Positions 1 through 52,242 of a stretch of DNA of 64,000 nt are shown here, piece by piece (position 1 is the stretch's first letter; every line of letters begins with the position of its first letter). The notes beneath the pieces were generated by a model, which was not told the DNA's origin, ran no database searches, and worked only from the letters and a program-made list of their open reading frames with translations. The stretch is taken from the NCBI RefSeq assembly GCF_009931435.1, contig NZ_CP043414.1; one strand, given 5' to 3'. The position numbers and the translations under genes were made by a program. This DNA is from Escherichia coli (GTDB taxonomy: Bacteria; Pseudomonadota; Gammaproteobacteria; Enterobacterales; Enterobacteriaceae).

Positions 1-282
1 CGATCGGTAAAACTCCGCCAGTTGCACGCCACGTCCGGCCAGTTGAAACAGCCCAACATCGAGATCAATGACCTGACGTACCGACCCCATATCGTGACGC
101 CGCTGCTGTTGTACTAACCAAACAGGTTCCCCCTGCCATTCGCCGATTTGTAGTGCGCGCTGACCCACAAGATCGAAATTTGCCGCTTCGCCATATGGCA
201 ATTCTCCCTTCGGCAACCATAATTTTTGTTCATGGCTGACGACCCACCAGCCGTGATCTAATTTTTCAATTATACGATCCAT
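1..282 (-). CDS. nudC: NADH pyrophosphatase NudC, N-terminal portion (gene continues beyond window start)
   Basis: Reverse-strand translation from the ATG at about 280-282 reads [42 protein letters not shown]..., matching the NudC N-terminus as I recall it; no stop before the window edge. Confidence 0.8.
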
Positions 283-376
283 AGCTCTTGCACTACCTTT
301 GCATCACTGGCATGTTTAACATGGTTTTTACATTTCTCACTGAGCAGTTTTTGAATACAAACTTGCGGAGTCAATC

Positions 377-853
377 ATGCTTAACCAGCTCGATAACCTG
401 ACGGAGCGCGTCAGAGGAAGTAACAAACTGGTTGATCGCTGGCTACATGTACGTAAGCATCTGCTCGTGGCTTACTACAATCTGGTTGGCATTAAGCCTG
501 GCAAAGAATCGTACATGAGGCTAAACGAAAAAGCCCTTGATGATTTTTGTCAGAGCCTGGTCGATTACTTGTCTGCCGGACATTTCAGTATTTATGAGCG
601 CATTCTTCATAAACTGGAAGGCAATGGGCAACTCGCACGCGCCGCGAAGATTTGGCCACAACTCGAAGCCAATACCCAACAGATTATGGATTACTACGAT
701 TCCAGCCTGGAAACCGCTATCGATCATGATAATTACCTTGAGTTTCAACAGGTTTTATCTGACATCGGCGAGGCCCTGGAAGCGCGCTTTGTGCTGGAAG
801 ATAAGCTGATTCTGCTGGTGCTTGACGCCGCCCGCGTCAAACATCCTGCTTGA
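377..853 (+). CDS. rsd: Regulator of sigma D (anti-sigma-70 factor Rsd)
   Basis: 158 aa ORF MLNQLDNLTERVRGSNKLVDRWLHVRKHLLVAYYNLVGIKPG...; matches Rsd; conserved position upstream of the thi operon. Confidence 0.93.
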   Translation: MLNQLDNLTERVRGSNKLVDRWLHVRKHLLVAYYNLVGIKPGKESYMRLNEKALDDFCQSLVDYLSAGHFSIYERILHKLEGNGQLARAAKIWPQLEANTQQIMDYYDSSLETAIDHDNYLEFQQVLSDIGEALEARFVLEDKLILLVLDAARVKHPA

Positions 854-911
854 GTTCTGCGCTGTTAACGCGTAATTTACATTCAACGCCCCGTTTGCGG
901 GGCTAATTTCT

Positions 912-1000
912 TGTCGGAGTGCCTTAACTGGCTGAGACCGTTTATTCGGGATCCGCGGAACCTGATCAGGCTAATACCTGCGAAGGGAACAAGAGTTAAT
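912..1000 (+). promoter_or_regulatory. TPP (THI-box) riboswitch aptamer in the thiC leader
   Basis: Conserved THI-element motifs CTGAGA ... CCTGATC ... GCTAATAC ... CGAAGGGAA lie 90-170 nt upstream of the thiC ATG. Confidence 0.8.
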
Positions 1001-1082
1001 CTGCTATCGCATCGCCTTTGCGGCGATCGTCTCTTGCTTCATCCGTCGTCTGACAAGCCACGTCCTTAACTTTTTGGAATGA

Positions 1083-3608
<2,526 letters not shown>

Positions 3609-3616
<8 letters not shown>

Positions 3617-4364
3617 CCGTGACTTTATGCGTTATAGCCGCCAAATCCTGCTCGACGATATCGCTCTTGACGGGCAGCAAAAACTGCTCGACAGCCAGGT
3701 GCTGATTATTGGTCTTGGCGGGCTGGGTACACCTGCTGCGCTATACCTGGCGGGGGCTGGTGTCGGGACGCTGGTACTGGCAGATGACGACGATGTGCAT
3801 TTAAGCAATCTGCAACGACAAATCCTCTTTACCACTGAAGATATCGATCGCCCGAAATCGCAGGTCAGCCAACAGCGACTGACACAGTTGAATCCCGACA
3901 TTCAACTGACAACATTACAACAACGGTTAACGGGTAAGGCGTTAAAAGATGCGGTAGCACGGGCCGATGTGGTGCTCGACTGTACCGACAACATGGCGAC
4001 TCGCCAGGAGATTAATGCCGCCTGCGTAGCACTTAACACACCGCTTATCACCGCCAGCGCGGTCGGATTTGGTGGTCAGTTGATGGTGCTGACACCGCCC
4101 TGGGAACAGGGGTGTTACCGCTGCCTGTGGCCGGATAACCAGGAGCCTAAACGCAACTGCCGCACGGCAGGCGTGGTTGGCCCGGTGGTCGGGGTCATGG
4201 GCACGTTACAGGCACTGGAAGCAATTAAGCTATTGAGTGGTATAGAGACCCCTGCGGGATATCTTCGACTGTTTGACGGTAAATTAAACCAATGGCGCAA
4301 CCTGGCGTTGCGCCGCGCCAGCGGTTGCCCGGTATGCGGAGGAAGCAATGCAGATCCTGTTTAA
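3609..4364 (+). CDS. thiF: Sulfur-carrier protein adenylyltransferase ThiF
   Basis: Internal ATG of track ORF 3516..4364 gives [27 protein letters not shown]... (251 aa) with the GLGGLG nucleotide-binding motif; start chosen by homology. Confidence 0.93.
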
Positions 4365-4548
4365 CGATCAACCGATGCAGTGCGTCGCCGGGCTAACTGT
4401 TCACGATCTGCTCGTGCAACTCAATCAACAACAAGCGGGCGCGGCGCTGGCGATTAACCAGCAAATCATCCCGCGAGAGCAGTGGGCGCAACATATCGTG
4501 CAGGATGGCGACCAGATCCTGCTTTTTCAGGTTATTGCAGGGGGTTGA
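4348..4548 (+). CDS. thiS: Sulfur carrier protein ThiS
   Basis: 66 aa [25 protein letters not shown]... ending in the characteristic C-terminal GG. Confidence 0.93.
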
Positions 4549-4549
4549 G

Positions 4550-5320
4550 ATGTTACGTATTGCGGACAAAACGTTTGATTCACATCTGTTTACCGGCACC
4601 GGGAAATTCGCCTCTTCACAATTGATGGTGGAGGCGATCCGCGCTTCCGGCAGCCAACTGGTGACGCTGGCGATGAAACGCGTCGACTTGCGCCAGCACA
4701 ACGATGCTATCCTCGAACCGCTTATCGCGGCGGGTGTGACCCTGCTGCCGAATACTTCCGGGGCGAAAACAGCGGAAGAAGCCATTTTCGCCGCCCATCT
4801 GGCACGTGAAGCATTAGGCACAAACTGGCTAAAATTAGAGATTCACCCTGACGCCCGCTGGCTGTTGCCCGATCCCATCGAAACCCTGAAAGCCGCCGAA
4901 ACACTGGTACAACAGGGATTTGTCGTGCTGCCTTACTGCGGTGCCGATCCGGTGTTGTGCAAACGTCTGGAAGAAGTCGGCTGTGCAGCGGTGATGCCGC
5001 TCGGCGCGCCGATTGGCTCGAATCAGGGACTGGAAACCCGCGCCATGCTGGAGATTATTATCCAGCAAGCCACGGTTCCGGTGGTCGTTGATGCTGGCAT
5101 TGGCGTTCCCAGCCATGCCGCGCAGGCGCTTGAAATGGGAGCCGATGCGGTGTTAGTGAATACGGCGATTGCCGTCGCGGACGATCCCGTCAACATGGCG
5201 AAGGCATTTCGTCTGGCGGTAGACGCCGGCCTGCTGGCACGTCAGTCCGGGCCGGGCAGTCGCAGTCATTTTGCTCATGCCACTAGCCCGCTGACCGGAT
5301 TTCTGGAGGCATCGGCATGA
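4550..5320 (+). CDS. thiG: Thiazole synthase ThiG
   Basis: [20 protein letters not shown]... (256 aa), using the internal ATG of track ORF 4505..5320 directly after the thiS stop. Confidence 0.94.
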
Positions 5321-6450
5321 AAACCTTCAGTGATCGCTGGCGACAACTGGACTGGGACGACATCCGCCTGCGAATCAACAGCAAAACGGCAGCTGACGTA
5401 GAGCGGGCGCTCAATGTTTCGCAACTCACTCGCGACGATATGATGGCATTGCTATCACCTGCCGCCGGTGAATACCTGGAACCACTGGCTCAACGGGCGC
5501 AGCGTCTGACCCGTCAGCGATTTGGCAACGTCGTCAGCTTCTACGTCCCGCTTTATCTTTCCAATCTTTGCGCTAACGACTGCACGTACTGCGGATTTTC
5601 CATGAGCAATCGCATCAAGCGTAAAACGCTGGATGAAGCGGATATCACCAGGGAAAGCGCCGCTATCCGGGAGATGGGCTTTGAACATCTATTGCTGGTC
5701 ACTGGTGAACATCAGGCGAAAGTGGGGATGGATTACTTTCGTCGTCATCTCCCTGTCCTGCGTGAACAGTTCTCTTCACTACAGATGGAAGTACAGCCAC
5801 TGGCGGAAGCGGAATACGCCGAGTTAAAGCAACTTGGTCTGGATGGGGTGATGGTTTATCAGGAGACATATCACGAGGCGACATACGCCCACCATCATCT
5901 GAAAGGGAAAAAACAGGACTTCTTCTGGCGGCTGGAAACGCCGGATCGGCTGGGCCGTGCGGGGATAGATAAGATAGGCCTCGGCGCGCTAATCGGCCTT
6001 TCCGACAGCTGGCGCGTTGACTGCTATATGGTTGCCGAACATTTGCTATGGCTGCAACAACATTACTGGCAAAGCCGTTACTCTGTCTCCTTCCCGCGCC
6101 TGCGCCCGTGTACTGGCGGGATTGAGCCAGCGTCGATTATGGATGAACGCCAGTTAGTGCAAACTATCTGCGCCTTCCGCCTACTTGCGCCGGAGATTGA
6201 ACTGTCACTCTCCACGCGGGAATCACCGTGGTTTCGCGATCGCGTTATTCCGCTGGCGATCAATAACGTCAGCGCCTTCTCGAAAACGCAACCTGGTGGC
6301 TATGCCGACAATCATCCGGAGCTGGAGCAATTCTCACCGCACGACGATCGCAGGCCGGAAGCCGTTGCTGCTGCATTAACTGCTCAGGGTTTGCAGCCGG
6401 TATGGAAAGACTGGGACAGCTATCTGGGACGTGCCTCGCAAAGGACATGA
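5317..6450 (+). CDS. thiH: 2-iminoacetate synthase ThiH (radical SAM)
   Basis: 377 aa ORF with the radical-SAM CxxxCxxC motif ([10 protein letters not shown]); ATGA overlap with thiG. Confidence 0.95.
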
Positions 6451-6642
6451 GACAGAATGTAAGAACGTAAATTTATTCCGAGCAGCTACGGAAGATGAAA
6501 AACGCAAGGTTGTTGAAAGCGTTGCGTTTTTTTATGTTAGTACCGTCAGCAGGAATGTTGTCCAGGGCGAAAAGCTTCTTCCTCGTTTCGCCCTGCCTTT
6601 CTTAATATTTCCCATGAAGAATTTGCCCTCTGAATAACACCC

Positions 6643-6672
6643 ATAAAAAAACCCGCCGAAGCGGGTTTTTAC
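6643..6672. terminator. Bidirectional rho-independent terminator between thiH and rpoC
   Basis: AAAAAAACCCGCCGAAGCGGGTTTTT: GC-rich hairpin flanked by an A-tract and a T-tract, sited between two convergent genes. Confidence 0.8.
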
Positions 6673-6691
6673 GTTATTTGCGGATTAACGA

Positions 6692-9600
6692 TTACTCGTT
6701 ATCAGAACCGCCCAGACCTGCGTTCAGCAGTTCTGCCAGGCTGGCAGATGCGTCTTCTGCAGTCACCTGCGGTGCAGCCGGAGCTTCACCCGCAGCACGG
6801 CGACGCATACGATCCTGGTGGTACGCGTAACCGGTACCTGCCGGGATCAGACGACCTACGATAACGTTCTCTTTCAGGCCGCGCAGTTCGTCGCGTTTGC
6901 CCGCAACGGCTGCTTCGGTCAGCACGCGAGTGGTCTCCTGGAACGATGCCGCGGAGATGAAGGACTCGGTTGCCAGAGACGCTTTGGTGATACCCAGCAG
7001 ATCGCGGGAGTAAGTTGCACCCACTTTGCCGTTCGCTTCCAGTTCGCGGTTTGCGATCTTGACGCGAGAGTATTCAACCTGTTCGCCTTCCAGGAAGTCG
7101 GAGCTGCCCGCGTTAACGATGGTAGCTTTACGCAGCATCTGACGAACGATAACTTCGATGTGTTTATCGTTAATCTTAACGCCCTGCAGACGGTATACGT
7201 CCTGTACTTCGTTAACGATGTAACGAGTCACAGCATGAACACCACGCAGACGCAGAATGTCATGCGGCGCTTCCGGACCGTCGGAAATTACGTCACCACG
7301 TTCTACACGTTCACCTTCGAACACGTTGAGCTGACGCCATTTCGGAATCATCTCTTCGTACGGCTCGCTACCGTCTACCGGGGTGATAACCAGACGACGT
7401 TTACCTTTGGTTTCTTTACCGAAGGAAACCACACCGCTGATTTCAGCCAGGATTGCCGGCTCTTTCGGACGACGTGCTTCGAACAGGTCCGCAACGCGTG
7501 GCAGACCACCGGTGATGTCCTTGGTACCGCCAGATTCTTGCGGAATACGCGCCAGGGTGTCACCAGAGCTGATCTGTACGCCATCTTCCAGCTGAACAAT
7601 CGCTTTACCCGGCAGGAAGTACTGCGCAGGCATGTCGGTACCCGGGATCAGAACGTCGTTACCCTGAGCATCAACGATTTTCAGTGCCGGACGCAGATCT
7701 TTACCACCTGCGGTACGTTCTGCGGAATCCAGAACCACCAGCGAAGACAGACCGGTCAATTCGTCGGTCTGACGAGTAATGGTCTGGCCGTCGATCATGT
7801 CAGTAAAGCGTACAAAACCGCTTACTTCGGTGATAACCGGCATGGTGTGCGGGTCCCAGTTTGCAACGGTCTCGCCGCCAGCAACCTGTTCGCCATCGCC
7901 TTTCGCCAGTACTGCACCGTAAGGCACTTTATAGCTTTCTTTGGTACGACCGAATTCGTCGATCAATTTCAGTTCGGTGTTACGGGAAGTGATAACCAGT
8001 TTGCCGCTGGAGTTCACAACCGACTTCACGTTGCTGAGCTTGATGCTACCTTTGTTTTTCACCTGGATGCTGGATTCAGCAGCCGCACGAGATGCCGCAC
8101 CACCGATGTGGAACGTACGCATGGTCAGCTGTGTACCCGGTTCACCGATGGACTGTGCCGCGATAACACCGATTGCTTCACCTTTGTTGATGATGTGGCC
8201 ACGTGCCAGGTCACGACCGTAGCAGTGCGCACATACACCAAAGTCGGTGTCACAAGATACAACAGAACGTACTTTAACCGCGTCGACAGAGTTCTCTTCC
8301 AGCAGGTCACACCACTGTTCGTGCAGCAGCGTGTTGCGCGGAACCAGGATATCAGCAGTACCCGGTTTAAGAACGTCTTCAGCAGTTACACGACCCAGTA
8401 CGCGATCGCGCAGCGGCTCTTTAACATCACCACCCTCGATAACCGGCGTCATCATGATACCTTCATGGGTACCACAATCGTCTTCGGTTACCACCAGGTC
8501 CTGCGCAACGTCAACCAGACGACGAGTCAGGTAACCGGAGTTCGCCGTCTTCAGTGCGGTATCCGCCAGACCTTTACGAGCACCGTGGGTTGAGATGAAG
8601 TACTGGAGTACGTTCAGACCTTCACGGAAGTTCGCGGTGATTGGCGTTTCGATGATGGAGCCATCCGGCTTCGCCATCAGACCACGCATACCCGCCAGCT
8701 GACGAATCTGTGCCGCAGAACCACGCGCACCGGAGTCGGCCATCATGTAGATGCTGTTGAAGGAAACCTGCTTCTCTTCCTGACCGTCACGGTTAATAAC
8801 GGTTTCAGTTTGCAGGTTATCCATCATCGCTTTGGATACACGATCGTTCGCCGCAGCCCAGATATCGATAACTTTGTTGTAGCGTTCGCCCGCAGTTACC
8901 AGACCAGACTGGAACTGCTCCTGAATCTCAGCAACTTCAGCTTCTGCCTCGGAGATGATTTCGTGTTTCTTCTCCGGGATGACCATGTCATCGATACCAA
9001 CAGATGCACCAGAACGCGCTGCATATGCAAAGCCGGTGTACATGATCTGGTCCGCAAAAATAACGGTCGGTTTCAGACCGAGAATGCGGTAGCAGGTGTT
9101 CAGCATTTTGGAGATTGCTTTCTTACCCAGCGCCTGGTTGACGATGGAGTAAGGCAGACCTTTCGGTACAATCATCCACAGAATGGCACGGCCAACGGTC
9201 GTATCTTTCAGGCTGGTTTTCGCTACTAATTCACCGTTAGCATCTTTTTCATACTCGGTGATACGCACTTTAACGCGCGCATGCAGAGAAGCCAGACCAG
9301 AGCGATACAGACGTTCTGCTTCTTTCGGGCCAGTCAGTACCATGCCTTCGCCTTTGGCGTTAACACAGTCACGGGTCATGTAGTACAGACCCAATACAAC
9401 GTCCTGAGACGGAACGATGATTGGTTCGCCGTTCGCCGGGGACAGGATGTTGTTGGTAGACATCATCAGCGCACGCGCTTCCAGCTGGGCTTCCAGTGTC
9501 AGCGGTACGTGAACAGCCATCTGGTCACCATCGAAGTCGGCGTTATATGCCGCACAAACCAGCGGGTGCAGCTGGATAGCTTTACCTTCGATCAGTACCG

Positions 9601-10915
9601 GTTCAAATGCCTGGATACCCAGACGGTGCAGAGTCGGTGCACGGTTCAGCAGTACCGGGTGTTCGCGGATAACTTCGTCCAGGATATCCCAAACGACAGC
9701 TTCTTCGCGCTCAACCATTTTCTTCGCAGCTTTAATGGTGGTAGCAAGACCACGCAGTTCCAGCTTGCCGTAGATGAACGGTTTGAACAGTTCCAGTGCC
9801 ATTTTCTTCGGCAGACCGCACTGATGCAGACGCAGGTATGGACCTACGGTGATTACAGAACGACCGGAGTAGTCAACACGCTTACCGAGCAGGTTCTGAC
9901 GGAAACGACCCTGTTTACCTTTGATCATGTCGGCCAAAGATTTCAGAGGACGCTTGTTAGAACCGGTGATCGCACGACCGCGACGACCGTTATCCAACAG
10001 GGCGTCTACCGCTTCCTGCAGCATACGTTTTTCATTACGTACGATGATGTCCGGCGCAGCCAGATCCAGCAGACGTTTCAGACGGTTGTTACGGTTAATG
10101 ACGCGACGATACAGATCGTTCAGGTCAGAAGTCGCGAAACGACCACCATCCAGCGGAACCAGCGGACGCAGATCTGGCGGCAGTACCGGCAGAACGGTCA
10201 GGATCATCCACTCTGGTTTGTTACCAGACTGAACGAACGCTTCCAGCAGTTTGATACGCTTGGTCAGCTTCTTACGCTTAGTTTCGGAGTTGGTTTCGTT
10301 CAGCTCTTCACGCAGCTGTTCGCACTCTTGCTCCAGATCCATGCTCTTCAGCAGAGCCTGGATTGCTTCCGCACCCATTTTCGCGTCGAATTCGTCACCG
10401 AACTCTTCCAGCGCGTCCAGATACTGCTCTTCAGTCAGGATCTGCTGACGCTCCAGGTTGGTCATACCGCCTTCGATAACCACATAGGATTCGAAGTACA
10501 GTACGCGTTCGATATCGCGCAGCGGCATATCGAGCAGCAGGCCGATACGGGACGGCAGCGATTTCAGGAACCAGATGTGCGCGGTCGGGGAAGCCAGTTC
10601 GATGTGGCCCATACGCTCACGGCGTACTTTAGTCTGGGTCACTTCAACGCCGCACTTCTCACAGATGACGCCACGGTGTTTCAGGCGCTTGTACTTACCG
10701 CACAGGCACTCGTAATCTTTTACCGGCCCAAAGATACGGGCGCAGAAAAGGCCGTCACGTTCTGGTTTGAACGTACGGTAGTTGATGGTTTCCGGCTTTT
10801 TAACTTCACCGAAAGACCATGAACGGATCATGTCTGGCGAAGCCAGAGCAATTTTGATCGCATCAAACTCTTCGGTTTTAGTCTGCGCTTTCAGAAACTT
10901 TAATAAATCTTTCAC
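6692..10915 (-). CDS. rpoC: RNA polymerase beta-prime subunit
   Basis: 1407 aa [36 protein letters not shown]... with NADFDGDQM catalytic motif. Confidence 0.99.
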
Positions 10916-10991
10916 GGATTTGCTCCCGTCGGAGTTAGCACAATCCGCTGCCGGGTTTTACCCCGACAGCAGTGACCTGTTTGAGCGAGAA

Positions 10992-13900
10992 TTACTCGTC
11001 TTCCAGTTCGATGTTGATACCCAGCGAACGAATCTCTTTCAACAATACGTTGAAGGATTCTGGCATGCCCGGCTCCATCTGATGGTTGCCGTCCACGATG
11101 TTTTTATACATCTTGGTACGACCGTTCACGTCATCAGACTTAACGGTGAGCATTTCCTGCAGGGTGTATGCTGCGCCGTATGCTTCCAGCGCCCACACTT
11201 CCATCTCCCCGAAACGCTGACCACCGAACTGTGCCTTACCACCCAGCGGCTGCTGAGTAACCAGGCTGTAAGAACCGGTGGAACGCGCGTGCATCTTGTC
11301 GTCGACCAGGTGGTTCAGTTTCAGCATGTACATGTAACCCACGGTTACCGGACGTTCGAACTGTTCACCAGTGCGACCGTCGTACAGGCGGATCTGACCA
11401 GAAGTCGGCAGGTCGCCAAGTTTCAGCAGTTCTTTAATTTCTGCTTCTTTCGCACCGTCGAAGACCGGCGTTGCGATTGGCATACCTTTGCGCAGGTTTT
11501 CAGCCAGACGCATAACTTCTTCATCGCTGAAGGTACTCAGGTCAACTTTCTGACGAACGTCAGCGCCCAGATCGTATGCACGCTGGATGAATTCGCGCAG
11601 TTTCGCGACTTCTTGCTGCTGTTTCAGCATGGCGTTGATCTTGTCGCCGATACCTTTCGCAGCCATACCCAGGTGGGTTTCGAGGATCTGACCGATGTTC
11701 ATACGAGACGGTACGCCCAGCGGGTTCAGTACGATGTCTACCGGCGTACCGTTTTCATCGTAAGGCATATCTTCGATCGGGTTGATCTTAGAAATTACAC
11801 CCTTGTTACCGTGACGACCTGCCATCTTGTCACCAGGCTGGATACGGCGTTTAACCGCCAGATATACCTTAACAATCTTCAGCACGCCCGGTGCCAGATC
11901 GTCGCCCTGGGTGATTTTGCGGCGTTTCGCTTCGAGTTTCTTCTCGAACTCGTGTTTCAGTTCGTCATATTGCTCAGCCAGCTGTTCCAGCTGATTTTGT
12001 TTCTCTTCGTCGGTCAGGCCCAGCTCCAGCCAGCGATCGCGCGGCAGTTTGTCGAGCTTCTCAGCTTCAACGCCACCGGCTACCAGCACAGCACGGATAC
12101 GGCTGAACAGACCCGCTTCGAGGATCTGCAGTTCTTCAGACAGGTCTTTCTTCGCCTGTTTGAGCTGCATTTCTTCGATTTCCAGCGCACGTTTGTCTTT
12201 TTCTACGCCATCGCGAGTAAAGACCTGAACGTCGATAACCGTACCGGATACACCGTTTGGTACACGCAGAGAAGAGTCTTTAACGTCAGACGCTTTCTCA
12301 CCGAAGATCGCACGCAGCAGTTTCTCTTCTGGAGTCAGCTGGGTTTCACCTTTCGGCGTTACCTTACCAACCAGAATGTCGCCACCGGTCACTTCCGCAC
12401 CAATGTAAACGATACCGGATTCATCCAGTTTGGAGAGCGCAGCTTCACCTACGTTCGGGATGTCAGCAGTGATCTCTTCTGGCCCCAGCTTGGTGTCACG
12501 GGACACACATGCCAGTTCCTGAATGTGGATGGTGGTGAAACGGTCTTCCTGAACAACACGCTCGGATACGAGGATGGAGTCTTCGAAGTTGTAACCATTC
12601 CACGGCATGAACGCTACGCGCATGTTCTGACCGAGCGCCAGTTCACCGAGGTCGGTGGACGGACCGTCTGCCAGCACGTCGCCGCGCTCTACCGGTTCAC
12701 CCAGAGACACACACGGCATCTGGTTGATACAGGTGTTCTGGTTAGAACGGGTGTATTTGGTCAGGTTGTAGATGTCGATACCCGCTTCGCCCGGATACAT
12801 CTCGTCTTCGTTAACTTTGATAACGATACGGGAAGCATCCACGTACTGAACGACACCACCACGTTTAGCAACCGCAGTTACACCGGAGTCAACGGCAACA
12901 GCACGTTCCATACCCGTACCAACCAGCGGCTTATCAGCACGCAGAGTCGGAACGGCCTGACGTTGCATGTTCGCACCCATCAATGCACGGTTGGCGTCAT
13001 CGTGTTCAAGGAACGGGATCAGGGACGCACCGACGGATACCACCTGCTGGGTGGATACGTCCATGTAGTCAACCTGGTCGCGGCTGAACAAGCTGGATTC
13101 GCCTTTGCTACGGCAAGTTACCAGGTCTTCTACGAAGTGGCCTTCTTCATCCAGGTTGGAGTTCGCCTGGGCGATAACGTAGTTGCCTTCTTCGATAGCA
13201 GACAGGTAGTGAATTTCGTCGGTTACAACACCGTCGATCACTTTACGGTACGGCGTCTCAAGGAAGCCATATTCGTTAGTCTGTGCGTACACGGACAGGG
13301 AGTTGATCAGACCGATGTTCGGGCCTTCAGGAGTTTCGATTGGACATACGCGACCGTAGTGAGTCGGGTGTACGTCTCGAACTTCGAAGCCTGCACGTTC
13401 ACGGGTCAGACCGCCTGGGCCGAGTGCGGAGATACGACGCTTGTGCGTAATCTCAGACAGCGGGTTGTTCTGGTCCATAAACTGAGACAGCTGGCTGGAA
13501 CCAAAGAACTCTTTCACTGCTGCGGAAATCGGTTTGGCGTTGATCATATCCTGAGGCATCAGGGTATCCAGATCGCCCAGAGACAAACGCTCTTTCACCG
13601 CACGCTCTACACGTACCAGGCCAACGCGGAACTGGTTTTCCGCCATTTCGCCAACGGAACGGATACGACGGTTACCGAGGTGGTCGATATCATCGACTTC
13701 GCCTTTACCGTTACGGATATCGATGAGCTTTTTCATAACATCAATGATGTCGTCTTTGCTCAGGATACCGGAACCTTCGATTTCGTCGCGTAGCAGAGAG
13801 CGGTTGAACTTCATACGACCAACCGCAGACAAGTCATAGCGGTCTTCAGAGAAGAACAGGTTCTCGAACAGGCTTTCAGCGGCTTCACGAGTCGGCGGCT

Positions 13901-15020
13901 CGCCAGGGCGCATCATGCGGTAGATTTCTACCAGTGCGCTCAGACGATCGTTAGTTGGGTCGACACGTAAGGTTTCAGAGATATACGGGCCGTGATCCAG
14001 ATCGTTGGTGAACAGCGTTTCGATACGCTTGTGACCAGACTGGCTCAGCTTAGCCAGCAGATCCAGGCTCAGCTCCATGTTCGCAGCACAGATCAGCTCG
14101 CCGGTAGACTCATCAATATAGTCTTTAGCAACCACTTTACCTGCGATGTACTCAACCGGGACTTCGATCAGTTTGACGTCGTCTTTTTCCAGCTGGCGAA
14201 TGTGGCGCGCAGTAATACGGCGGCCTTTTTCTACGTACACTTTACCGTTAGCTTCGATGTCGAAAGATGCGGTTTCACCACGCAGGCGTTCCGGCACCAG
14301 TTCCATCTGCAGCTTGTTATCACGGATTTCAAAGATAACTTTTTCAAAGAACAGGTCGAGGATCTGCTCTGTGGTGTAGTTCAGGGCACGCAGAATGATG
14401 GTCGCAGGCAGTTTACGGCGACGGTCGATACGTACGAACAGGTTGTCCTTCGGATCGAATTCGAAGTCCAGCCAGGAACCACGGTAAGGGATGATGCGCG
14501 CGTTATACAGCACTTTACCCGAAGAGTGGGTTTTACCTTTGTCGGAGTCAAAGAAGACGCCCGGACTACGGTGCAGCTGGGAAACGATAACACGCTCAGT
14601 ACCGTTGATAACAAAGGTACCGTTGTCCGTCATGAGCGGAATTTCGCCCATGTAGACTTCTTGTTCTTTAATGTCTTTTACGGTGCCTTCCGGCGCTTCG
14701 CGCTCATAGATCACCAGACGCAGTTTAACGCGCAGCGGTGCGGAATAGGTCACGCCACGGATTTGACATTCCTGGACGTCAAACACCGGTTCGCCAAGGC
14801 GGTAGCTGACGTATTGCAGCTCGGAATTACCGCTGTAGCTCTGAATCGGGAATACGGAACGGAAAGCAGCTTCCAGACCATACTGCCCTTCAGGATCTTG
14901 CTCGATAAATTTCTGAAACGAGTCAAGCTGGATAGAAAGGAGATAAGGTACATCCAGAACTTGTGGACGTTTACCAAAATCCTTACGAATACGTTTTTTC
15001 TCGGTATAGGAGTAAACCAT
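10992..15020 (-). CDS. rpoB: RNA polymerase beta subunit
   Basis: Track ORF 10992..15053; true start taken at [31 protein letters not shown]... (1342 aa); rifampicin-resistance cluster I reads as wild type ([30 protein letters not shown]). Confidence 0.98.
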
Positions 15021-15263
15021 AGGGTTCCTCAGCTCGCTGACAAGTCGACCCATCTGTCCATTGAGCGGACAGTTTGTGCAACACTATTTTGTTGACCGGA
15101 AAATGGAACACTTTCCGCAATGCCTGTTGCTATCACGCTTAAACCATTTCATTGCGATTTACACAGAACGGGCGTCCTGTCGCAGTATATTAAGTCGTCG
15201 ATAGAAACAAGCATTGAAAGGCACAGCAGTAGTCAAACAGTGTGAAACGCTACTGGCGCCTTA

Positions 15264-15300
15264 CAGCGCAAAAAGGCTGGTGACTAAAAAGTCACCAGCC
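15264..15300 (-). terminator. rplL-rpoB intergenic attenuator (partial terminator)
   Basis: Hairpin GGCTGGTGACT-loop-AGTCACCAGCC followed by a U-run on the transcribed strand, in the known attenuator position between rplL and rpoB. Confidence 0.7.
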
Positions 15301-15339
15301 ATCAGCCTGATTTCTCAGGCTGCAACCGGAAGGGTTGGC

Positions 15340-15705
<366 letters not shown>

Positions 15706-15771
15706 TTAAATTGTTCCTGAATATCAGAATAAGTTTATACGTAAGCGAATGCGTTAAAAAGATAACTGCGA

Positions 15772-16269
15772 TTAAGCAGCTTCTTTCGCATCGCGTACAG
15801 CAGCCAGAGTACGAACCAGTTTGCCAGCCGAAGCTTCTTTCATGGTTGCCATCAGGCGTGCAATTGCTTCTTCGTAGGTCGGCAGAGTTGCCAGGCGGTC
15901 GATCTGAGACGCCGGGATCAGCTCACCTTCAAAGGCAGCGGCTTTGACCTCAAATTTTGCATTCGCTTTCGCGAACTCTTTGAACAGACGAGCAGCTGCG
16001 CCCGGGTGTTCCATAGAGTATGCAATCAGGGTCGGACCAACAAACGCGTCTTTCAGGCACTCGAACGGAGTACCTTCAACAGCACGGCGCAGCAGGGTGT
16101 TACGAACAACACGCATGTATACGCCAGCTTCGCGACCTGCTTTACGCAGTTCAGTCATTTTATCTACAGTTACGCCACGGGAATCCGCAACTACTGCAGA
16201 CAGCGCGCCTTTGGCTACTTCGCTGACTTCAGCAACAATCGCTTGTTTGTCTTGAAGATTTAAAGCCAT
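15772..16269 (-). CDS. rplJ: 50S ribosomal protein L10
   Basis: 165 aa [43 protein letters not shown]... Confidence 0.98.
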
Positions 16270-16681
16270 TAGCTTTGCTCCTGGATGTTTGCCAGAGAAA
16301 ATCTCTGGAACTCACTTCACTCTTCCAAACGGAGAGAGCGTCTTAATTACGGTGAGCAGAAACAAGCCAGAATATAAAAGAATAATCTTAGCGTTCTGTC
16401 ACCGTCTACGCAGGGGATTAAGTTTCTTGCGAAACTCCTGCGGTCTTCGACGGAGGCCTGGATAGGCCAGGCTCCAACGAACAAATCTTTTCTATCCGTC
16501 GCTATTCAGCTTGTAGCGGCGTTGGCTTCCTTCGTTCGCACCAGTCACATAGTTAGCTATGCTCCTGGCGACTCACTCAGTTGCCGCCTTGCTACAACCC
16601 GAATATCTCGGATATACGTCTGCATTAAGCATTATACGTGGGGGTAAGATTGTAGACAAAATCACCGCCCACGTAAAGGCA
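16270..16681 (-). promoter_or_regulatory. rplJ promoter and long structured leader (L10-L12 autoregulatory target)
   Basis: About 410 nt untranslated interval between rplA and rplJ; position corresponds to the known L10 leader; exact elements not delimited here. Confidence 0.55.
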
Positions 16682-30672: not shown

Positions 30673-32455
30673 AGACTGTCTCATAATCTTTGTCGAACAG
30701 GTTGGCTATTTTACCACGAACTGTCAGGTGAGAGGTGACCGGATACGCAACCGCAAGATCCCACACACTCAGTCCCCCCATTTTCACCCTACGGGCATTG
30801 TCAAAGTCGTAATCGTATCGCTCACCGATGTACTGATACGTAACATCCCATCCAAGCTCATAAATCTCACCGCTCAACTCATATTTTACCTGCTGTTTTG
30901 CGCGACGATAGAGTTGCTGATCAGTTTCATCATCGCGGGGGTCAACATACTGCAACGTCAAACGATGATCGACTGGACCAGTTATGAGATTACCCGTCCA
31001 TTCAAGGCCCTTAATTGTCGCGGATTTGACGTTAAAATAGGTATTTTTGTTGTAGTCAATCAGATTCTGGATTTTGTAGTGATAGGTCGACAAGCGCCAG
31101 TCAACTGGACCGGTTAGGCCTTCTAATCCAGCCTCCCATTGCTTAGATTCTTCTGGCTTCAAATTAGGGTTAGAAGCAATACCGAATCGCTCTGCGCCAA
31201 ATTGTTGACCAAGCGAAGGAGCCAGGAAACCTGTTCCATAGGAAAGCGTTACTTTGTAATTATCAACAAACTGCCATCCTGCCGCCGTTTGCCAAGTACC
31301 ATGCCAGCCGAACTGACCATCGTGATCCTCACGACCAGAGGCTTCCAGCGTGACGTTGTCAATTTGCTGCTGCCCGGTCAGATAAAGCCCGGTGTTGTTG
31401 CGCTTATAGTTATCTGTGCCATAAGCACCGAAGGACATCAGTTTTTCCTGTTTCCAGTCCGCTCCTGCGCTGATAGCACCATGTCCAACAATGACATTGT
31501 TACCCCACTGGATATAACGTTGCTCCATATCATCAAGAGTATAACCTGACGCGTAACGTCTAGCCTGACTGCTGTAGTTGTAGTCCTTAATGCGCTGATA
31601 ATTTGCAACCAGCTGAGAAGAATAGATCCCCGAATTAAAACGCAACCCCGTATCCCACGACTGCGTATAATTTTGATGCTCGTCATTGCCGCCATCATAT
31701 CCCCAGTTCCCCTGGTCGTAATCAGCATTACTGGCATAACCATAACCACGGAAGTAACCATCAAACTGATCGTTAAATTTGTGCTCAATTCCGCCCCAGA
31801 ACAGCTTGTTGCGATAACCATCGCGATCGCTATCTCCGCTATAGCTTGAGTATGGCTGGATGTTGAAACCTTTGGTCGTTTGATAAGCCCCTGCAGCAGT
31901 CACGACCGTGTCACCAAAACGCTGACGGTAAGTACCATCGTATTGCTGGTAACCTTTCGAACCAATACCGATATTAATCTGCGAACGCTCTTCATTCGTC
32001 ATAGTAATGATGTTGACAACACCACCAATCGCGCCAGAGCCATAAACTGCCGAGCGCGGACCGCGGATATATTCGATACGCTGGACCAGCGAGACCGGGA
32101 TCTGGTCAATCTCTGAGTTATTCGAAATACCAGGGCGTGCTACTGGAATGCCATCGACTAACACCAGAACGTGTTTCGCTTCAGTTCCCCGGATAAAAAG
32201 AGAAGAACTCTGCCCCATACCACCATTCTGTGCGACATCAACGCCAGGCAAGCGGCGCATCACATCCAGAACAGTTCTGGATTGCCAGCGTTCGATATCC
32301 TCACGCGTGACAATATCCGTCGGAGCCAGAACCGTATTGACCGGTTGCTGAAAACGGTTAGCAGTAACGACGAGAGTATCCGGGCTGGTATCCTGTGCCC
32401 AAGCGGAAAATGCCGTGACGGAACACGCCGTCAGCAGCGAAGCTTTTTTAATCAT
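30617..32455 (-). CDS. btuB: TonB-dependent vitamin B12 / colicin E / phage BF23 outer-membrane receptor BtuB (divergent allele)
   Basis: Track ORF 30617..32500; start at MIKKASLLTACSVTAFSAWAQDTSPDTLVVTANRF (signal peptide plus TonB box DTLVVTA); C-terminus ...VYGYQTAGREYTLSGSYTF; central barrel region differs strongly from the K-12 sequence as I recall it. Confidence 0.92.
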   Translation of the reverse strand: MIKKASLLTACSVTAFSAWAQDTSPDTLVVTANRFQQPVNTVLAPTDIVTREDIERWQSRTVLDVMRRLPGVDVAQNGGMGQSSSLFIRGTEAKHVLVLVDGIPVARPGISNNSEIDQIPVSLVQRIEYIRGPRSAVYGSGAIGGVVNIITMTNEERSQINIGIGSKGYQQYDGTYRQRFGDTVVTAAGAYQTTKGFNIQPYSSYSGDSDRDGYRNKLFWGGIEHKFNDQFDGYFRGYGYASNADYDQGNWGYDGGNDEHQNYTQSWDTGLRFNSGIYSSQLVANYQRIKDYNYSSQARRYASGYTLDDMEQRYIQWGNNVIVGHGAISAGADWKQEKLMSFGAYGTDNYKRNNTGLYLTGQQQIDNVTLEASGREDHDGQFGWHGTWQTAAGWQFVDNYKVTLSYGTGFLAPSLGQQFGAERFGIASNPNLKPEESKQWEAGLEGLTGPVDWRLSTYHYKIQNLIDYNKNTYFNVKSATIKGLEWTGNLITGPVDHRLTLQYVDPRDDETDQQLYRRAKQQVKYELSGEIYELGWDVTYQYIGERYDYDFDNARRVKMGGLSVWDLAVAYPVTSHLTVRGKIANLFDKDYETVYGYQTAGREYTLSGSYTF

Positions 32456-40417: not shown

Positions 40418-40768
40418 CATTATTGCAATCTCCTGTGTTGTAAATAGACGCTTCAAACTTAATTTTACGCCTACTACCATACAAGAGAGAAAGGGCGATT
40501 ATTCAACCGTGATCACATTAAAAATAAAAATTTCCGCCGAGGAACAAAAATATCCTCAAATCTCACCTACACTATTAACTACCATCGTTAAAACAACGTG
40601 TTAAATAATCACATAACAAATTCCTTTAAGGAAAGGAGTTATAACAACAACAAAAGATAATCATATTTTACTTAATTCAATACGTATCGATAGGTTTATT
40701 TAAAAAGGATTTTTCGGAATGAGAGATGAAAAGAAGATACACAAGCAGGAAGAAATACGATTAATATT

Positions 40769-40904
40769 AGTTGCGGTAAGGGTAGCCGTTCCTCCCTTCC
40801 GCAACCCATTAACCGTTGAAGTCACAGACTATTTCAGGCATTTCTCAACTCAAAATAACGACAGCCAACGTGAACTTTATGGCTCTCCAGGATCTGCTTT
40901 GTTT
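40769..40904 (+). ncRNA. oxyS-like element: diverged second copy (paralog or relic) of the OxyS sRNA
   Basis: AACCGTTGAAGTCACAGACTATTTCAGGCATTTCTCAACTCAAAATAACGACAGCCAACGTGAACTTTATGGCTCTCCAGGATCTGCTTTGTTTT aligns at about 80 percent identity by eye to oxyS 37722-37817; a 5' stem-loop and a TAATAT -10-like box sit upstream; terminator stem is degenerate. Confidence 0.5.
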
Positions 40905-40908
40905 TCCA

Positions 40909-42387
40909 TCAAACAACGGAGCTCAGCGCACTGGCTACCTGTTTAAAGCGAGCAAACCGTCGCCTGAGCATGTGTGCTTTTTCTACATTCGGTTCAAGAC
41001 GAATCACGTTGAGCTGCGTAGCCTTCATGGCCTGTTTGAATCCAGAATAAGCCCCTCCTCCTACTGCCGCACACATTGCAGCCGCTCTACAACCTGACTG
41101 TTCAATATCGACAATTTCAAGAGGCATTTTGCTGGCATCACAAAACATCTGCATCCAGATTCTGGAATGCGTTGGCCCGCCAGAGAAACGAATCGTTTGC
41201 AATGACTTATCAATCTCAATAAGACGGTCCTGATGCAACAAATGAGAAAAGACAACGCCCTGATAAATAGCGTACACCAAATCTTCTCTTTTATGATGCC
41301 CACACAGCCCCAAAAATCCCCCGCTTAATGCCTCATGGTAATTCGAGCCAAACAACCACGGGAAAAAGAGAATATCATTCTGTTTCTCATACCCTCGTTC
41401 CACCCACTCATTAATCACCCGATAACTGTCAGGAAGACCCGGTAAAAATTGCTGCAAGAACCATGTTAAATTACTGGCTGATGTAGGGCTTCCCTCATGG
41501 GCGAAAAATGTACCTGGAATGCTAAATTTCCCCCATACATAGGGATAATCAGAAGGAATAATGCGATCAAAGATTCGCGTTGCAATTGACCAGGTGCCAG
41601 CAACCGCACTTAACGTTGTACTGTCATAGATGCCAGAAGTGAGCGCCGCACCAACGACATCAAAAACACCACCAAAAACAGGCGTTCCGGCGAGAAGCCC
41701 ACATTGGCTGGCTGCTTCAGATGTCACAAACCCAGCTAAATCAGCGGAGCCAATAATATCGGGAACCTTACCCGCAACTTCCTTAATCTCAAATAGGCGA
41801 AAAAGTTCAGCATCATAAGCACTGGTATATTGATTATAAAAATTACTGCCTGAAATATTGGTTTCTTCACAAGCCAGTTTGCCAGTAAGCCGTGAACGTA
41901 TGTAATCATGAACCATCAAAATGGTTCCGATGCGGCCATAATTGTCAGTCTCATGTTTTTTCAACCAATGCAATAGTGCTACAGGGTGCGATGGCCAGAG
42001 CTGTTGCAGACTACGGTGATAACTTTCGCGGTCAATTCCTTGTTCTTTCCAGCTTGCAACCAGTTGTTGTGCGCGAGAATCAGAGGAAACAATGCCGTGT
42101 CGTAAGGGCTTACCTTGCCGGTCGAGCAGGTACAAACCTTTACCATGAGCAGAAAAACTGATGCCATCAATCTGACTCGCAGTAATATTGTTATCTGACA
42201 TCGACAGTGAAATGACCTGGCACGTTACCTTCCATAACGCCTCCATGTCGCGTTCGCAAAAACCAGGACATGGGCTTAACAGAGGTAACGCCTGCGAAGA
42301 GACACCTATTTCACGTCCTTCTGCCGTATAAATTCCCGCTTTGGTTTCTGTACCACCTAAATCGACACCAATAAAATACCGCTCCAT
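40909..42387 (-). CDS. FGGY-family carbohydrate kinase (L-xylulose/3-keto-L-gulonate kinase LyxK-like)
   Basis: 492 aa MERYFIGVDLGGTETKAGIY... with FGGY N- and C-terminal signatures (HDY..., SGGPTHSRIWMQM); family assignment confident, substrate not. Confidence 0.85.
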   Translation of the reverse strand: MERYFIGVDLGGTETKAGIYTAEGREIGVSSQALPLLSPCPGFCERDMEALWKVTCQVISLSMSDNNITASQIDGISFSAHGKGLYLLDRQGKPLRHGIVSSDSRAQQLVASWKEQGIDRESYHRSLQQLWPSHPVALLHWLKKHETDNYGRIGTILMVHDYIRSRLTGKLACEETNISGSNFYNQYTSAYDAELFRLFEIKEVAGKVPDIIGSADLAGFVTSEAASQCGLLAGTPVFGGVFDVVGAALTSGIYDSTTLSAVAGTWSIATRIFDRIIPSDYPYVWGKFSIPGTFFAHEGSPTSASNLTWFLQQFLPGLPDSYRVINEWVERGYEKQNDILFFPWLFGSNYHEALSGGFLGLCGHHKREDLVYAIYQGVVFSHLLHQDRLIEIDKSLQTIRFSGGPTHSRIWMQMFCDASKMPLEIVDIEQSGCRAAAMCAAVGGGAYSGFKQAMKATQLNVIRLEPNVEKAHMLRRRFARFKQVASALSSVV

Positions 42388-42403
42388 GATCCCTCCTTAG
42401 TTT

Positions 42404-43267
42404 CTAAATATTATCCCAGCCGGCAAGGCGCATTTTCTCTTCAATCCATTGACGTGCATGAATAATTTCTAATAGAGGTTCCGTCGCTTTTTCTGTCCAC
42501 ATTTCTATCAGAAACGTTCCGCGATAATTAAGATTACGCAGGATCTTAAATAATTTAATAAAATCTACACACCCTTCACCAAAAGGAACGTCACGAAATT
42601 GCCCTGGAGAATCAGGCGTTACTGGGTACGTATCTTTAAGATGGATTGCGGCAATTCGATCAATCCCCTTTACCAGCTCACTTTCCAGTTCATTACCCCA
42701 TGCGGTCAGATTGCCAACATCCGGATAAACGGTAAACCAAGGGGAATTAATTTTTGTATCCAGGACTTTCCATTTACTAATAGAATTAATAAATGGCGTA
42801 TCCATGATCTCTACAGCACACATAACTTGTGCCGCTGCGGCCTGTTCAGCTGTCCAGGCCATCGCATCTTCAAACCAGGCGATAGTTTCTTCATTCTGCG
42901 GCTCATAATAAACGTCATAGCCTGCCAGTTGGATTGTTCGAATCCCCAAATCCTGCGCCAGGCGTAACGCCTTCAACATAATCGTACGTGCCTGCTGACG
43001 AGTATCTCTATCATGGCTACCAAATGGAAAACGCCGGTGAGCAGACAGGCACATTGTCGGAATACGGATCCCCGTTTGCTGAATGGCGCTAATAAGCTCC
43101 ATACGCTCGGTGAGCGACCAGTCCAGGCGGGCGAGTCGTTCATCATTCTCATCTACCGACATCTCAACAAAATCAAAACCGCAAGATTTAGCCAGGGCTA
43201 GTTTCTCTACCCAACTGGTATTCCTGGGTAGCGCTTTTTCATAAATACCTAACGGGTGGCGTCGCAT
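42404..43267 (-). CDS. Sugar-phosphate 3-epimerase of the xylose-isomerase-like TIM-barrel family (L-ribulose-5-phosphate 3-epimerase SgbU/UlaE-like)
   Basis: 287 aa MRRHPLGIYEKALPRNTSWVEKLALAKSCGFDFVEMSVDENDERLARLDWS...IRTIQLAGYDVYYE...HLKDT...FLIEMW; close resemblance to SgbU/UlaE as I recall them. Confidence 0.8.
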   Translation of the reverse strand: MRRHPLGIYEKALPRNTSWVEKLALAKSCGFDFVEMSVDENDERLARLDWSLTERMELISAIQQTGIRIPTMCLSAHRRFPFGSHDRDTRQQARTIMLKALRLAQDLGIRTIQLAGYDVYYEPQNEETIAWFEDAMAWTAEQAAAAQVMCAVEIMDTPFINSISKWKVLDTKINSPWFTVYPDVGNLTAWGNELESELVKGIDRIAAIHLKDTYPVTPDSPGQFRDVPFGEGCVDFIKLFKILRNLNYRGTFLIEMWTEKATEPLLEIIHARQWIEEKMRLAGWDNI

Positions 43268-44343
43268 TATTTTCCCTCACGAGTGATCAATTGTTGTTGA
43301 AAGATTTTCCGGCTCTTATTCATGTCACGCTGCAACTGCCATTTTTGTTTGATGAATTTAAATGCCAGTGCGGCGATCAATGTGATCCCCCATACCGCCA
43401 GATTGAAATGCAAACTAAGTCCCAACAGACTAAGGCCGGTAGCAATAACCTGAAGCACAAGTAAGGCACAAAAAACATGACTGACTTTACCCGCCCCACC
43501 GAATGGATCTGTGCCTCCCAATACAATTGCAAGAACCGTCAAGAGCAGATAGGAATCGCCATAGCCCATACGCGCCGAATTAAATCGCGCGAGCATAATA
43601 AGACCTGCTAATACACACAACATGCTGGATATAGCATATATAGCAATTAATACGCGGTCGGTGCGAATACCGCTAAACCATGTGGCGTTAATATTACTGC
43701 CACACATATAAATCGTTTTTCCCGTACGGGTTTTGCCGAGGAACAGAGCTAAAGCAACGGTGGTGACGATAAAAATTATCATCGGTACTGGGATCCCCAT
43801 GATAACTTCAGACCCAATACTGCGGACTACTGGTGGCATACCACTTAAAGCTGCCCCCTTAGTCAGGTAAATACCGATACCACTAATAATGGTCATGCTA
43901 CCCAATGTGACCAAAATAGGGTGAGCGCCTATATGAGAAATAATTGACCCAGTAATAGCTCCAATGATGATGGCAATAAGCATCGCCCCGACAATAGCCA
44001 GGAAGAGCCAAAACAACTGACTACCTGTAGATGCATCTGCGGGTACATATTGAATCAACAGCCAGGCCATAAACAGGCTGGTCAGATTCGCAGTACCGAT
44101 GATTGCCAGATTGAGCCCCCCGCTCAACATGGGTATAAACATCGCAAACGTGAGCAACCCAAGCTCTGGCAATTGAAATGCAATGCTCAGAAAAGTATTG
44201 CCGGTGAAAAAACGCCCCGGCATTACCAGACTAAATAACACCACCGCAATAAAACATATTGATAATAAGCCTGAACTGGTACCATCTAGTGGAAAAAATA
44301 TCCGCTTGTTCATTTCGATCCTCCCGTTAGACGAAACCAACAT
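43267..44343 (-). CDS. ABC transporter permease (CUT2, RbsC/LsrD-like)
   Basis: 358 aa polytopic membrane protein; stop/start overlaps neighbours within the ABC operon. Confidence 0.8.
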   Translation of the reverse strand: MLVSSNGRIEMNKRIFFPLDGTSSGLLSICFIAVVLFSLVMPGRFFTGNTFLSIAFQLPELGLLTFAMFIPMLSGGLNLAIIGTANLTSLFMAWLLIQYVPADASTGSQLFWLFLAIVGAMLIAIIIGAITGSIISHIGAHPILVTLGSMTIISGIGIYLTKGAALSGMPPVVRSIGSEVIMGIPVPMIIFIVTTVALALFLGKTRTGKTIYMCGSNINATWFSGIRTDRVLIAIYAISSMLCVLAGLIMLARFNSARMGYGDSYLLLTVLAIVLGGTDPFGGAGKVSHVFCALLVLQVIATGLSLLGLSLHFNLAVWGITLIAALAFKFIKQKWQLQRDMNKSRKIFQQQLITREGK

Positions 44344-45319
44344 CAGTTTCTTTACGTTTTTTGTAATGGGTCACACAAATCGCCGAGACAATAACCACTC
44401 CAATAACGATATTGACGAAATAACTCGAGATGCCAATCAAATTAAGGCCGTTTTTAAGAATACCGATAAGAAATACGCCCATAAGCGTACCAATGACCGT
44501 ACCACGTCCGCCTGATAAACTGGCACCGCCCAATACCGCTGCAGCCAGCACATCCAACTCTCCGCCAACCAATGCATTCGGCACAACTTCACTCATACGA
44601 TAAGCTTGCAGCATTCCACCAATTGCTGCAGCGGCACCAAGATAACCATAAGCAAACAGATAAATTAGCGACACCCGAATCCCAATACGTCTTGCTGATT
44701 CGGTATTCCCTCCCACGGCATAAAGCTGACGCCCAATATGGGTTTTGTTCATTATCATCCACGTCAGAAATGCCATTCCCAGCATAACCACTAACGGTAA
44801 TCCGATCTGGTAATCTTCTCCGCCAAATTCAAAACTCAGGAAAGAACGCTGCGTAATCCACCAATCCGGTAAATCGTAAATACTGTGGCCATTAGTCAAC
44901 CACATCAACATACCGAACAGTAGCGACTGCATACTAATCGTAATGATGATGGAAACGACATTAAGGTAATAAATAAGAATAGCGTTTATCAAACCAAAAA
45001 TGATGCCAAGAAAAACAGCAAACACCAGACAGAAAAATGGATTTGATAGCGTTTCATTAAGCAGTAACGACGCCACAACATATTGCACAACCGAAGCTAC
45101 TGCTGCAAAAGAGATATCAATTCCGCCAGTAACCAATACGACAAATAATCCGAGGGCGAAAATACCCGTTACGGCATAACTTTCCGAGAGATCGAGCAAG
45201 TTCTGTATTGATAAAAACTCATCGCTCATGATGGAAAAAAATACCAGCATGAGAACAATGACCCATCCTAACCAAGCTTCGACTGAACGAGGAAACCGCA
45301 GCCGCATAAAGCTAACCAT
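44327..45319 (-). CDS. ABC transporter permease (CUT2, RbsC/LsrC-like)
   Basis: 330 aa polytopic membrane protein with GGIDISFAAV and GGxSLxGGRGT motifs typical of ribose-type permeases. Confidence 0.8.
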   Translation of the reverse strand: MVSFMRLRFPRSVEAWLGWVIVLMLVFFSIMSDEFLSIQNLLDLSESYAVTGIFALGLFVVLVTGGIDISFAAVASVVQYVVASLLLNETLSNPFFCLVFAVFLGIIFGLINAILIYYLNVVSIIITISMQSLLFGMLMWLTNGHSIYDLPDWWITQRSFLSFEFGGEDYQIGLPLVVMLGMAFLTWMIMNKTHIGRQLYAVGGNTESARRIGIRVSLIYLFAYGYLGAAAAIGGMLQAYRMSEVVPNALVGGELDVLAAAVLGGASLSGGRGTVIGTLMGVFLIGILKNGLNLIGISSYFVNIVIGVVIVSAICVTHYKKRKETDVGFV

Positions 45320-46829
45320 TAATCACCTCCGCCAACTGCTGCTCGGTATAATTCGAAGGCAACAGCTCATTAATAATCTTTCCGCGCTTCATATGAAAAA
45401 TACGATCGCAGTTATAATAAGCTTCTGGTGCTTCATCAGTAATTAATATCACTGAAATACCCACACCTGAAAGCCGATGAATAAGCTGGTAAATACTATC
45501 TTTTGCGCCAATATCTACACCTACCGTTGGCGCATCCAGAATTAAAACCTTAGGTCGTGTTAAAATCCATTTAGCCAGGACAACCTTTTGTTGATTGCCG
45601 CCAGATAGCGTTGAAAGTGGATTATTTGGATCGGTGACTTTAATATCCAAATCCTGGATCCACTCCTTGACTAAGGTTTCTTTTCGATTTTCATCAATAA
45701 ACCCCGATGCCGTCTTTAAACGATCCAGAATCGAGAGCACCATATTATCGCTGATAGATTGGGGTAATACGGCCCCCAGTGTCAGGCGATCTTCTGAAAC
45801 ATATGCTATTCCCAGTTTTACCGCATGCGTGTTGTCTTTAATTGTAACGGGCTTACCTTCCAGATAAATATCACCACTATCTGGTCGAGTAATACCGAAA
45901 AGACTCAATGCTAATTCAGTTCTCCCCGCACCAAGTAAACCACACAATCCCAGAACCTCGCCCTGGTGTAGTTTTAGAGAAACATCTTCAAATTGCCCTT
46001 TTCTGCATAATTTGTTTAGTTCAAGGACTACTTTGCCTTCAACGCTATTTGGTAGCTTCTTCTGGTGGACTATAGTTTTTCCGGTCATTAACTCAGTAAT
46101 ATCGCCCGGAGAAAGTTGATTGGCAGCCCACGTTCCAATTATCTCTCCATCACGGATGACCGTAATCCGATCTGAAATTTCCTTAACTTCATCAAGGCGG
46201 TGGCTAACAAAAACTACGGTAATATTTTTATCGCGTAAGTAATTCACTGTGCGTAGTAATTGATTAACTTCTGTACGCGTCAATGATGCCGTTGGCTCGT
46301 CCATGATGACTAACCGGGCATCGGCAATCAGAGCCCGGCAAATCGCGACCTGTTGGCGTTGTGCAATCGGCAAATGTTGTACTAACGCATCAGGATCGAG
46401 ATTGAATTGCAGCTCCTGAATTATTTTCTGCGATACATCTCGAAGTTGTTTTTTTCTGTGCAGCCCTAAATATCCCTTCAGGTTGTATTCAAAAGCGATA
46501 TTTTCAGCAACAGAAAGATTTGGGAATAAAGAAAGATCCTGATATATCACCTGAATACCCAGTTCCCGAGCTTTATCAGGAGAAAGACGAGTCCAGGACT
46601 TACCATCTATAATAATTTCACTTCCCGAATCAGGGACATAAACACCACACAGCGTTTTGATCAGAGTACTTTTACCACACCCATTCGCACCAGCAAGACA
46701 ATGAACCTCACCTTTATTTAAGGTAAGATTGATATTCTTTAGAGCCCTATGGCCACCGAAACTTTTCGTTAGTGACCTTAGCGTCACTAATGGTTGCTCC
46801 GCATTCTTCTCTATAATATGAGGCATCAT
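45312..46829 (-). CDS. Sugar ABC transporter ATP-binding protein with duplicated ABC domains (RbsA/LsrA-like)
   Basis: 505 aa; first Walker A GANGCGKST, LSGGNQQK-type signature, second degenerate P-loop GLLGAGRTE as in CUT2 ATPases. Confidence 0.85.
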   Translation of the reverse strand: MMPHIIEKNAEQPLVTLRSLTKSFGGHRALKNINLTLNKGEVHCLAGANGCGKSTLIKTLCGVYVPDSGSEIIIDGKSWTRLSPDKARELGIQVIYQDLSLFPNLSVAENIAFEYNLKGYLGLHRKKQLRDVSQKIIQELQFNLDPDALVQHLPIAQRQQVAICRALIADARLVIMDEPTASLTRTEVNQLLRTVNYLRDKNITVVFVSHRLDEVKEISDRITVIRDGEIIGTWAANQLSPGDITELMTGKTIVHQKKLPNSVEGKVVLELNKLCRKGQFEDVSLKLHQGEVLGLCGLLGAGRTELALSLFGITRPDSGDIYLEGKPVTIKDNTHAVKLGIAYVSEDRLTLGAVLPQSISDNMVLSILDRLKTASGFIDENRKETLVKEWIQDLDIKVTDPNNPLSTLSGGNQQKVVLAKWILTRPKVLILDAPTVGVDIGAKDSIYQLIHRLSGVGISVILITDEAPEAYYNCDRIFHMKRGKIINELLPSNYTEQQLAEVING

Positions 46830-52235: not shown

Positions 52236-52242
52236 TGCACCC

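Follow-up and report, generated by a model that had tools for sequence, protein, structure and literature searches.

The rpoB locus and its surroundings

The gene for the RNA polymerase beta subunit, rpoB, occupies positions 10992..15020 of the 64-kb stretch of Escherichia coli DNA analysed here (the window). It lies on the minus strand, a point left unstated in an earlier note on this DNA, and its translation comprises 1342 aa. The mechanically called minus-strand open reading frame was longer (10992..15053), since it was extended to an upstream ATG at 15053. Judged by collinearity, the true start of rpoB is the MVYSY ATG at 15020 and not the ATG at 15053, because only then does the gene coincide exactly with the annotated rpoB of both K-12 MG1655 and E. 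coli 2017-02-2CC. The NCBIfam rpoB equivalog TIGR02013 matched with 1989.6 bits (cutoff 801.15) and spanned RpoB residues 8-1339. In a search of the PDB, residues 401-740 matched solved beta chains of E. coli RNA polymerase (E=1.9e-221).

Directly downstream, and co-transcribed with rpoB, lies rpoC on the same minus strand (6692..10915), encoding the beta' subunit of 1407 aa. Its protein is identical to that of strain 2017-02-2CC and differs from K-12 by I1162V and D1184E. Upstream of rpoB follow rplL, rplJ, rplA, rplK, nusG, secE and tufB, and the rplKAJL-rpoB-rpoC order is the one conserved at the K-12 and 2017-02-2CC loci. By gene order and translation, this is a chromosomal E. coli rpoB whose rplKAJL-rpoBC surroundings are the normal ones and whose product is a fully intact beta subunit. 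The intergenic region between rplL and rpoB (15274-15335, minus strand) matched the Rfam family P26 (RF00630) with 74.5 bits; this conserved structured element lies immediately ahead of rpoB.

Several other parts of the window deserve description. Downstream of rpoC, yjaZ and the sRNA gene sroH, which in K-12 separate rpoC from thiH, are missing, and the gap there measures only 241 nt (6451-6691). We considered this absence as an oddity and rejected the idea: the K-12 yjaZ/sroH segment was found in 3741 of the 5426 complete genomes, and we regard it as a common presence/absence polymorphism. Part of btuB (30787-32150) could not be aligned to 2017-02-2CC by megablast and represents a divergent btuB allele; BtuB serves as a receptor for phages and colicins, and diversifying selection often acts on it. 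A segment of about 9.4 kb (40630-50024), situated between the manD/MFS genes and argH, has no counterpart in 2017-02-2CC. Its genes code for a DeoR regulator, a sugar ABC transporter (binding protein, ATPase and two permeases), an FGGY kinase, and both an L-ribulose-5-phosphate 3-epimerase and a 4-epimerase. Judged by this gene content, it is an accessory sugar-utilisation island of the pentose/hexuronate type, and it also occurs on hundreds of E. coli contigs. The adjoining segment with argH, argB, argC and argE (50025-54561) is 95.3% identical to 2017-02-2CC, versus 98-99.4% for its flanks. Such local divergence next to the sugar island points to a segment that is probably recombinant. Among the RNAs of the window are TPP and cobalamin riboswitches, OxyS and an rrn operon that has an annotated, collinear counterpart in 2017-02-2CC and that we take to be rrnB from its K-12 position. 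tRNA genes for Thr, Gly, Tyr and Thr are annotated at the corresponding positions in 2017-02-2CC.

Rifampicin-resistance clusters compared with K-12

The Rif site of RNA polymerase has been defined structurally and genetically and was then saturation-mutagenised at positions 510-537 and 563-572, comprising 38 positions (PMC10550828). RRDRs I-III of E. coli rpoB have been given as residues 507-533, 563-572 and 687 (PMC7073797). We compared the window RpoB without gaps to that of K-12 MG1655 (b3987, NP_418414.1), the rifampicin-sensitive reference for RRDR numbering. All four rifampicin-resistance clusters were identical in protein to K-12, and no indels were observed. This applies to the N-terminal cluster (residues 143-148 including V146; 14577..14594), to cluster I, the RRDR proper (residues 507-533; 13422..13502), to cluster II (residues 563-574; 13299..13334) and to cluster III (residues 684-690 including R687; 12951..12971), all on the minus strand. 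At the DNA level, cluster I differs from K-12 only by one synonymous difference at codon 527, while cluster II carries synonymous changes at codons 563, 566 and 574.

The earlier note had stated that the classical positions are free of substitutions, and the ungapped comparison bears this out. Unchanged relative to K-12 are the codons for Q513 (13482-84), D516 (13473-75), H526 (13443-45), S531 (13428-30), P564 (13329-31) and I572 (13305-07), together with that for R687 (12960-62). The residues R529, L533, T563, S574 and V146 are unchanged as well. Taken over all known resistance positions (146, 507-534, 563-574 and 687), we detected neither a substitution nor an in-frame indel in the window RpoB versus K-12; in-frame resistance indels are ruled out because the length of the gene equals that of K-12 (1342 aa). 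The two peptides quoted for clusters I and II are indeed present and correspond to residues 509-538 (13407..13496) and 561-575 (13296..13340), respectively. The interval for which a wild-type sequence had been claimed, 12940..13500, comprises RpoB residues 507-693 and so covers cluster III too, which went unmentioned. Within this interval the designation 'wild type' is accurate for all clusters but not, taken literally, for the interval as a whole, as it overlooked a substitution, T595I, that falls between clusters II and III.

The classical Rif-resistant E. coli alleles D516V, H526Y and S531L affect the same gene and region, and none of these substitutions occurs in the window RpoB. The three mutants have been solved, presumably as PDB entries 5UAJ/5UAL, 5UAQ and 5UAG/5UAH-type, in that order. 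When the PDB was searched with the window RpoB, the Rif-resistant mutant beta chains appeared as separate, slightly lower-scoring sequences.

E412D and T595I, and the origin of the allele

Comparison of the whole protein with K-12 revealed two differences only, both of them natural variants encoded on the minus strand: E412D, where codon GAC (Asp) replaces GAA (Glu) at 13785..13787, and T595I, where ATC (Ile) replaces ACC (Thr) at 13236..13238. The window RpoB thus shares with K-12 its length of 1342 aa, its operon context, 1340 of the 1342 residues and all rifampicin clusters, whereas it differs by E412D and T595I and, in DNA, by 59 nt (98.54% identity). For a full-length essential gene this similar to its K-12 counterpart, a chance resemblance need not be considered. 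Since 57 of these 59 nucleotide differences are synonymous, the pattern is one of long purifying selection rather than of recent drug selection.

Could T595I, alone or together with E412D, nevertheless act as a non-classical substitution, weakening the binding of rifampicin or otherwise conferring low-level resistance at the target? The residue is located only 23 positions downstream of cluster II, the substitution recurs on two different E. coli rpoB backgrounds (see below), and resistance-mutation callers flag it. In a PointFinder survey of Ethiopian diarrhoeagenic E. coli, T595I was the predominant rpoB difference, with the phenotype not given (PMC11559196); this survey was the sole E. coli mention of T595I that our literature searches found. 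However, none of the mapped resistance clusters includes 412 or 595, nor does the Rif site as delimited in PMC10550828 and PMC7073797, and 595 is not one of the 38 Rif-site positions (PMC10550828). Neither position was covered by two deep-mutagenesis studies of E. coli rpoB. Our literature searches found no resistance phenotype for T595I or E412D in connection with rpoB, and the papers retrieved for T595I with rpoB report none.

The natural distribution of both residues speaks against such an effect as well. Within the same 90% protein cluster, residue 412 is D in RpoB of Salmonella, Enterobacter, Pantoea and Erwinia. At position 595, E. coli and Enterobacter have T, Erwinia and Sodalis have R, and Salmonella and Pantoea have V, a residue similar to Ile; across Enterobacterales the position is occupied by V, R, T or I. 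We then searched the genomes of species representatives, using a degenerate DNA pattern for an 11-residue peptide containing Ile-595, and obtained at least 80 loci. Each of the 80 matches listed falls in an rpoB homologue, shortly after its cluster II sequence. Tested automatically, 78 of them showed the motif in unaltered form; the other two, from uncultured Bacilli, read ESPEGQNIGL. Ile at 595 is therefore a common native state, found in rpoB of at least 80 species representatives. These belong to the Gamma- and Alphaproteobacteria, the Actinobacteria and the Firmicutes and include Shewanella, Colwellia, Phaseolibacter, a Coxiella-like endosymbiont, Alphaproteobacteria, Mycolicibacterium, Nocardia, Streptomyces and Clostridia. 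No Escherichia representative was among the 80 Ile-595 loci listed, which include distant taxa. Given that Ile-595 is native to many bacteria and, as described below, to E. fergusonii, and that the allele carries 57 synonymous changes and occurs in many hosts, which places it before any plausible drug selection, we consider a resistance effect of T595I very unlikely.

How is the allele distributed in E. coli? Of 5420 complete E. coli genomes, only 18 possess an rpoB at least 99% identical to that of the window. The same 18 genomes, and no others among 5426 complete E. coli genomes, matched a 33-mer with codon 595 at its centre. These carriers were isolated from human, dog, goat, cattle and pig, and their DNA differs from that of the window by up to 0.8%. 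Such host spread and divergence argue for an allele that is old and widespread. When the 33-mer was placed on the K-12 background with the single C to T change, one further genome was found, FORC_042 (NZ_CP025318.1). Its rpoB differs from K-12 by 5 nt, with T595I as the sole amino-acid change, and has neither of the allele-specific SNPs that flank this codon, at nt 1773 and 1800. Because these SNPs are absent, T595I in FORC_042 apparently had, most simply, an independent origin. E. coli would then have acquired the substitution on at least two occasions, a recurrence that fits neutrality without proving it.

The window allele might also be regarded as lying far outside E. coli diversity, but this is only mildly true. 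In 4946 of the 5420 genomes, rpoB matches that of K-12 with an identity of at least 99%, and in 474 genomes the identity lies between 95% and 99%, the lowest sampled values being about 98.7%; the 98.5% of the window marks the edge of this range and is not beyond it.

The exact 1342-aa RpoB occurs on at least 1000 public contigs, where it is named RPOB_ESCF3 (E. fergusonii ATCC 35469) and 'MULTISPECIES [Escherichia]'. The E. fergusonii RpoB (UniProt RPOB_ESCF3; genome CP079891) is 100% identical to that of the window, including D412 and I595. At the DNA level, we compared the window to CP079891, a record labelled E. fergusonii, whose species label we use as given by the record. The window is closer to CP079891 than to K-12 in rpoB (99.48% versus 98.54% identity), rpoC (99.08% versus 98.56%), thiH (97.88% versus 93.21%), thiC (98.31% versus 96.10%) and thiF (97.09% versus 94.84%). 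Judged by these identities, the thi-rpoBC segment (within 1-16450, nudC' to rplJ) is fergusonii-like, which explains D412 and I595 in the window RpoB.

Does the window then represent E. fergusonii itself? We rejected this despite the identity of its RpoB with RPOB_ESCF3. In contrast to E. fergusonii, the window is otherwise E. coli by its protein labels and collinearity. The exact ThiC, ThiH, ArgH and EptC and the proteins of the sugar island are labelled E. coli by their sources, and over 16.4 kb only 2 nt separate the window from the contig PTRH01000029, which carries the exact ThiH labelled E. coli. Moreover, the window is collinear with E. coli 2017-02-2CC, to which it is 98-99.4% identical over most of its length, one insertion apart.

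Instead, the comparison points to a rare lineage of E. coli in which this segment resembles E. fergusonii, and introgression may account for the presence of thi-rpoBC in it. The more specific scenario, in which this segment entered the lineage by interspecies recombination and T595I in addition exerts a small effect on RNA polymerase or on rifamycin sensitivity, has in our view only an outside chance of being correct. On the basis of the alleles compared here, E412D and T595I belong to a rare allele of rpoB that resembles E. fergusonii, and they are lineage polymorphisms and not drug-selected changes.

Expected rifampicin susceptibility and its meaning

Rifampicin blocks RNA extension via a pocket in the beta subunit that is built from cluster residues (PMC10550828; Campbell et al. 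2001 as cited in PMC7073797). Residues 510-537 and 563-572 form most of this pocket, those around 146 and 687 also contribute, and the drug bound within it stops extension of the nascent RNA chain. Resistance is normally acquired via substitutions or small in-frame indels at the pocket residues. Because every pocket residue of the window RpoB is identical to the sensitive K-12 reference, the enzyme would be expected to bind the drug normally. The prediction of the earlier note that the strain is susceptible at the target level is supported: four clusters equal to K-12, equal protein length and only E412D and T595I elsewhere are what a susceptible target would look like. This prediction had been made subject to known resistance substitutions elsewhere in RpoB, and over the whole protein none was found.

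A susceptible target might coexist with resistance of another kind, conferred by an Arr ADP-ribosyltransferase, a rifamycin phosphotransferase or monooxygenase, or altered efflux or permeability, in which case the wild-type target would be uninformative on the phenotype. Only 64 kb of the genome are visible, which leaves room for such a mechanism, and arr genes of Enterobacterales are typically found on integrons or plasmids. Yet all genes of the window are either housekeeping genes or belong to the sugar-utilisation island, and based on collinearity with the annotated genome and on Pfam/NCBIfam, no gene for a rifamycin-modifying enzyme (arr/rph/rox type) was found within the 64-kb window. We regard non-target resistance as highly improbable here; it would in any case not contradict the earlier note, whose claim concerned the target level only. 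E. coli is only moderately susceptible to rifampicin by nature, owing to its outer membrane.

Taken together, rpoB of this strain is very probably wild type at the rifampicin target, with normal drug binding to be expected and with both variants as lineage polymorphisms.

A wild-type rifampicin target in rpoB is an ordinary and already known feature. E. coli carries a wild-type RRDR by default, Enterobacterales are not routinely treated with rifampicin, and the finding as such matters little. Mutation callers that use K-12 as reference will, however, report T595I and E412D here, and these calls should be read as natural polymorphisms and not as resistance mutations. Furthermore, rpoB and the adjoining thi genes of this lineage resemble those of E. 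fergusonii, so that species typing based on rpoB could be misled.
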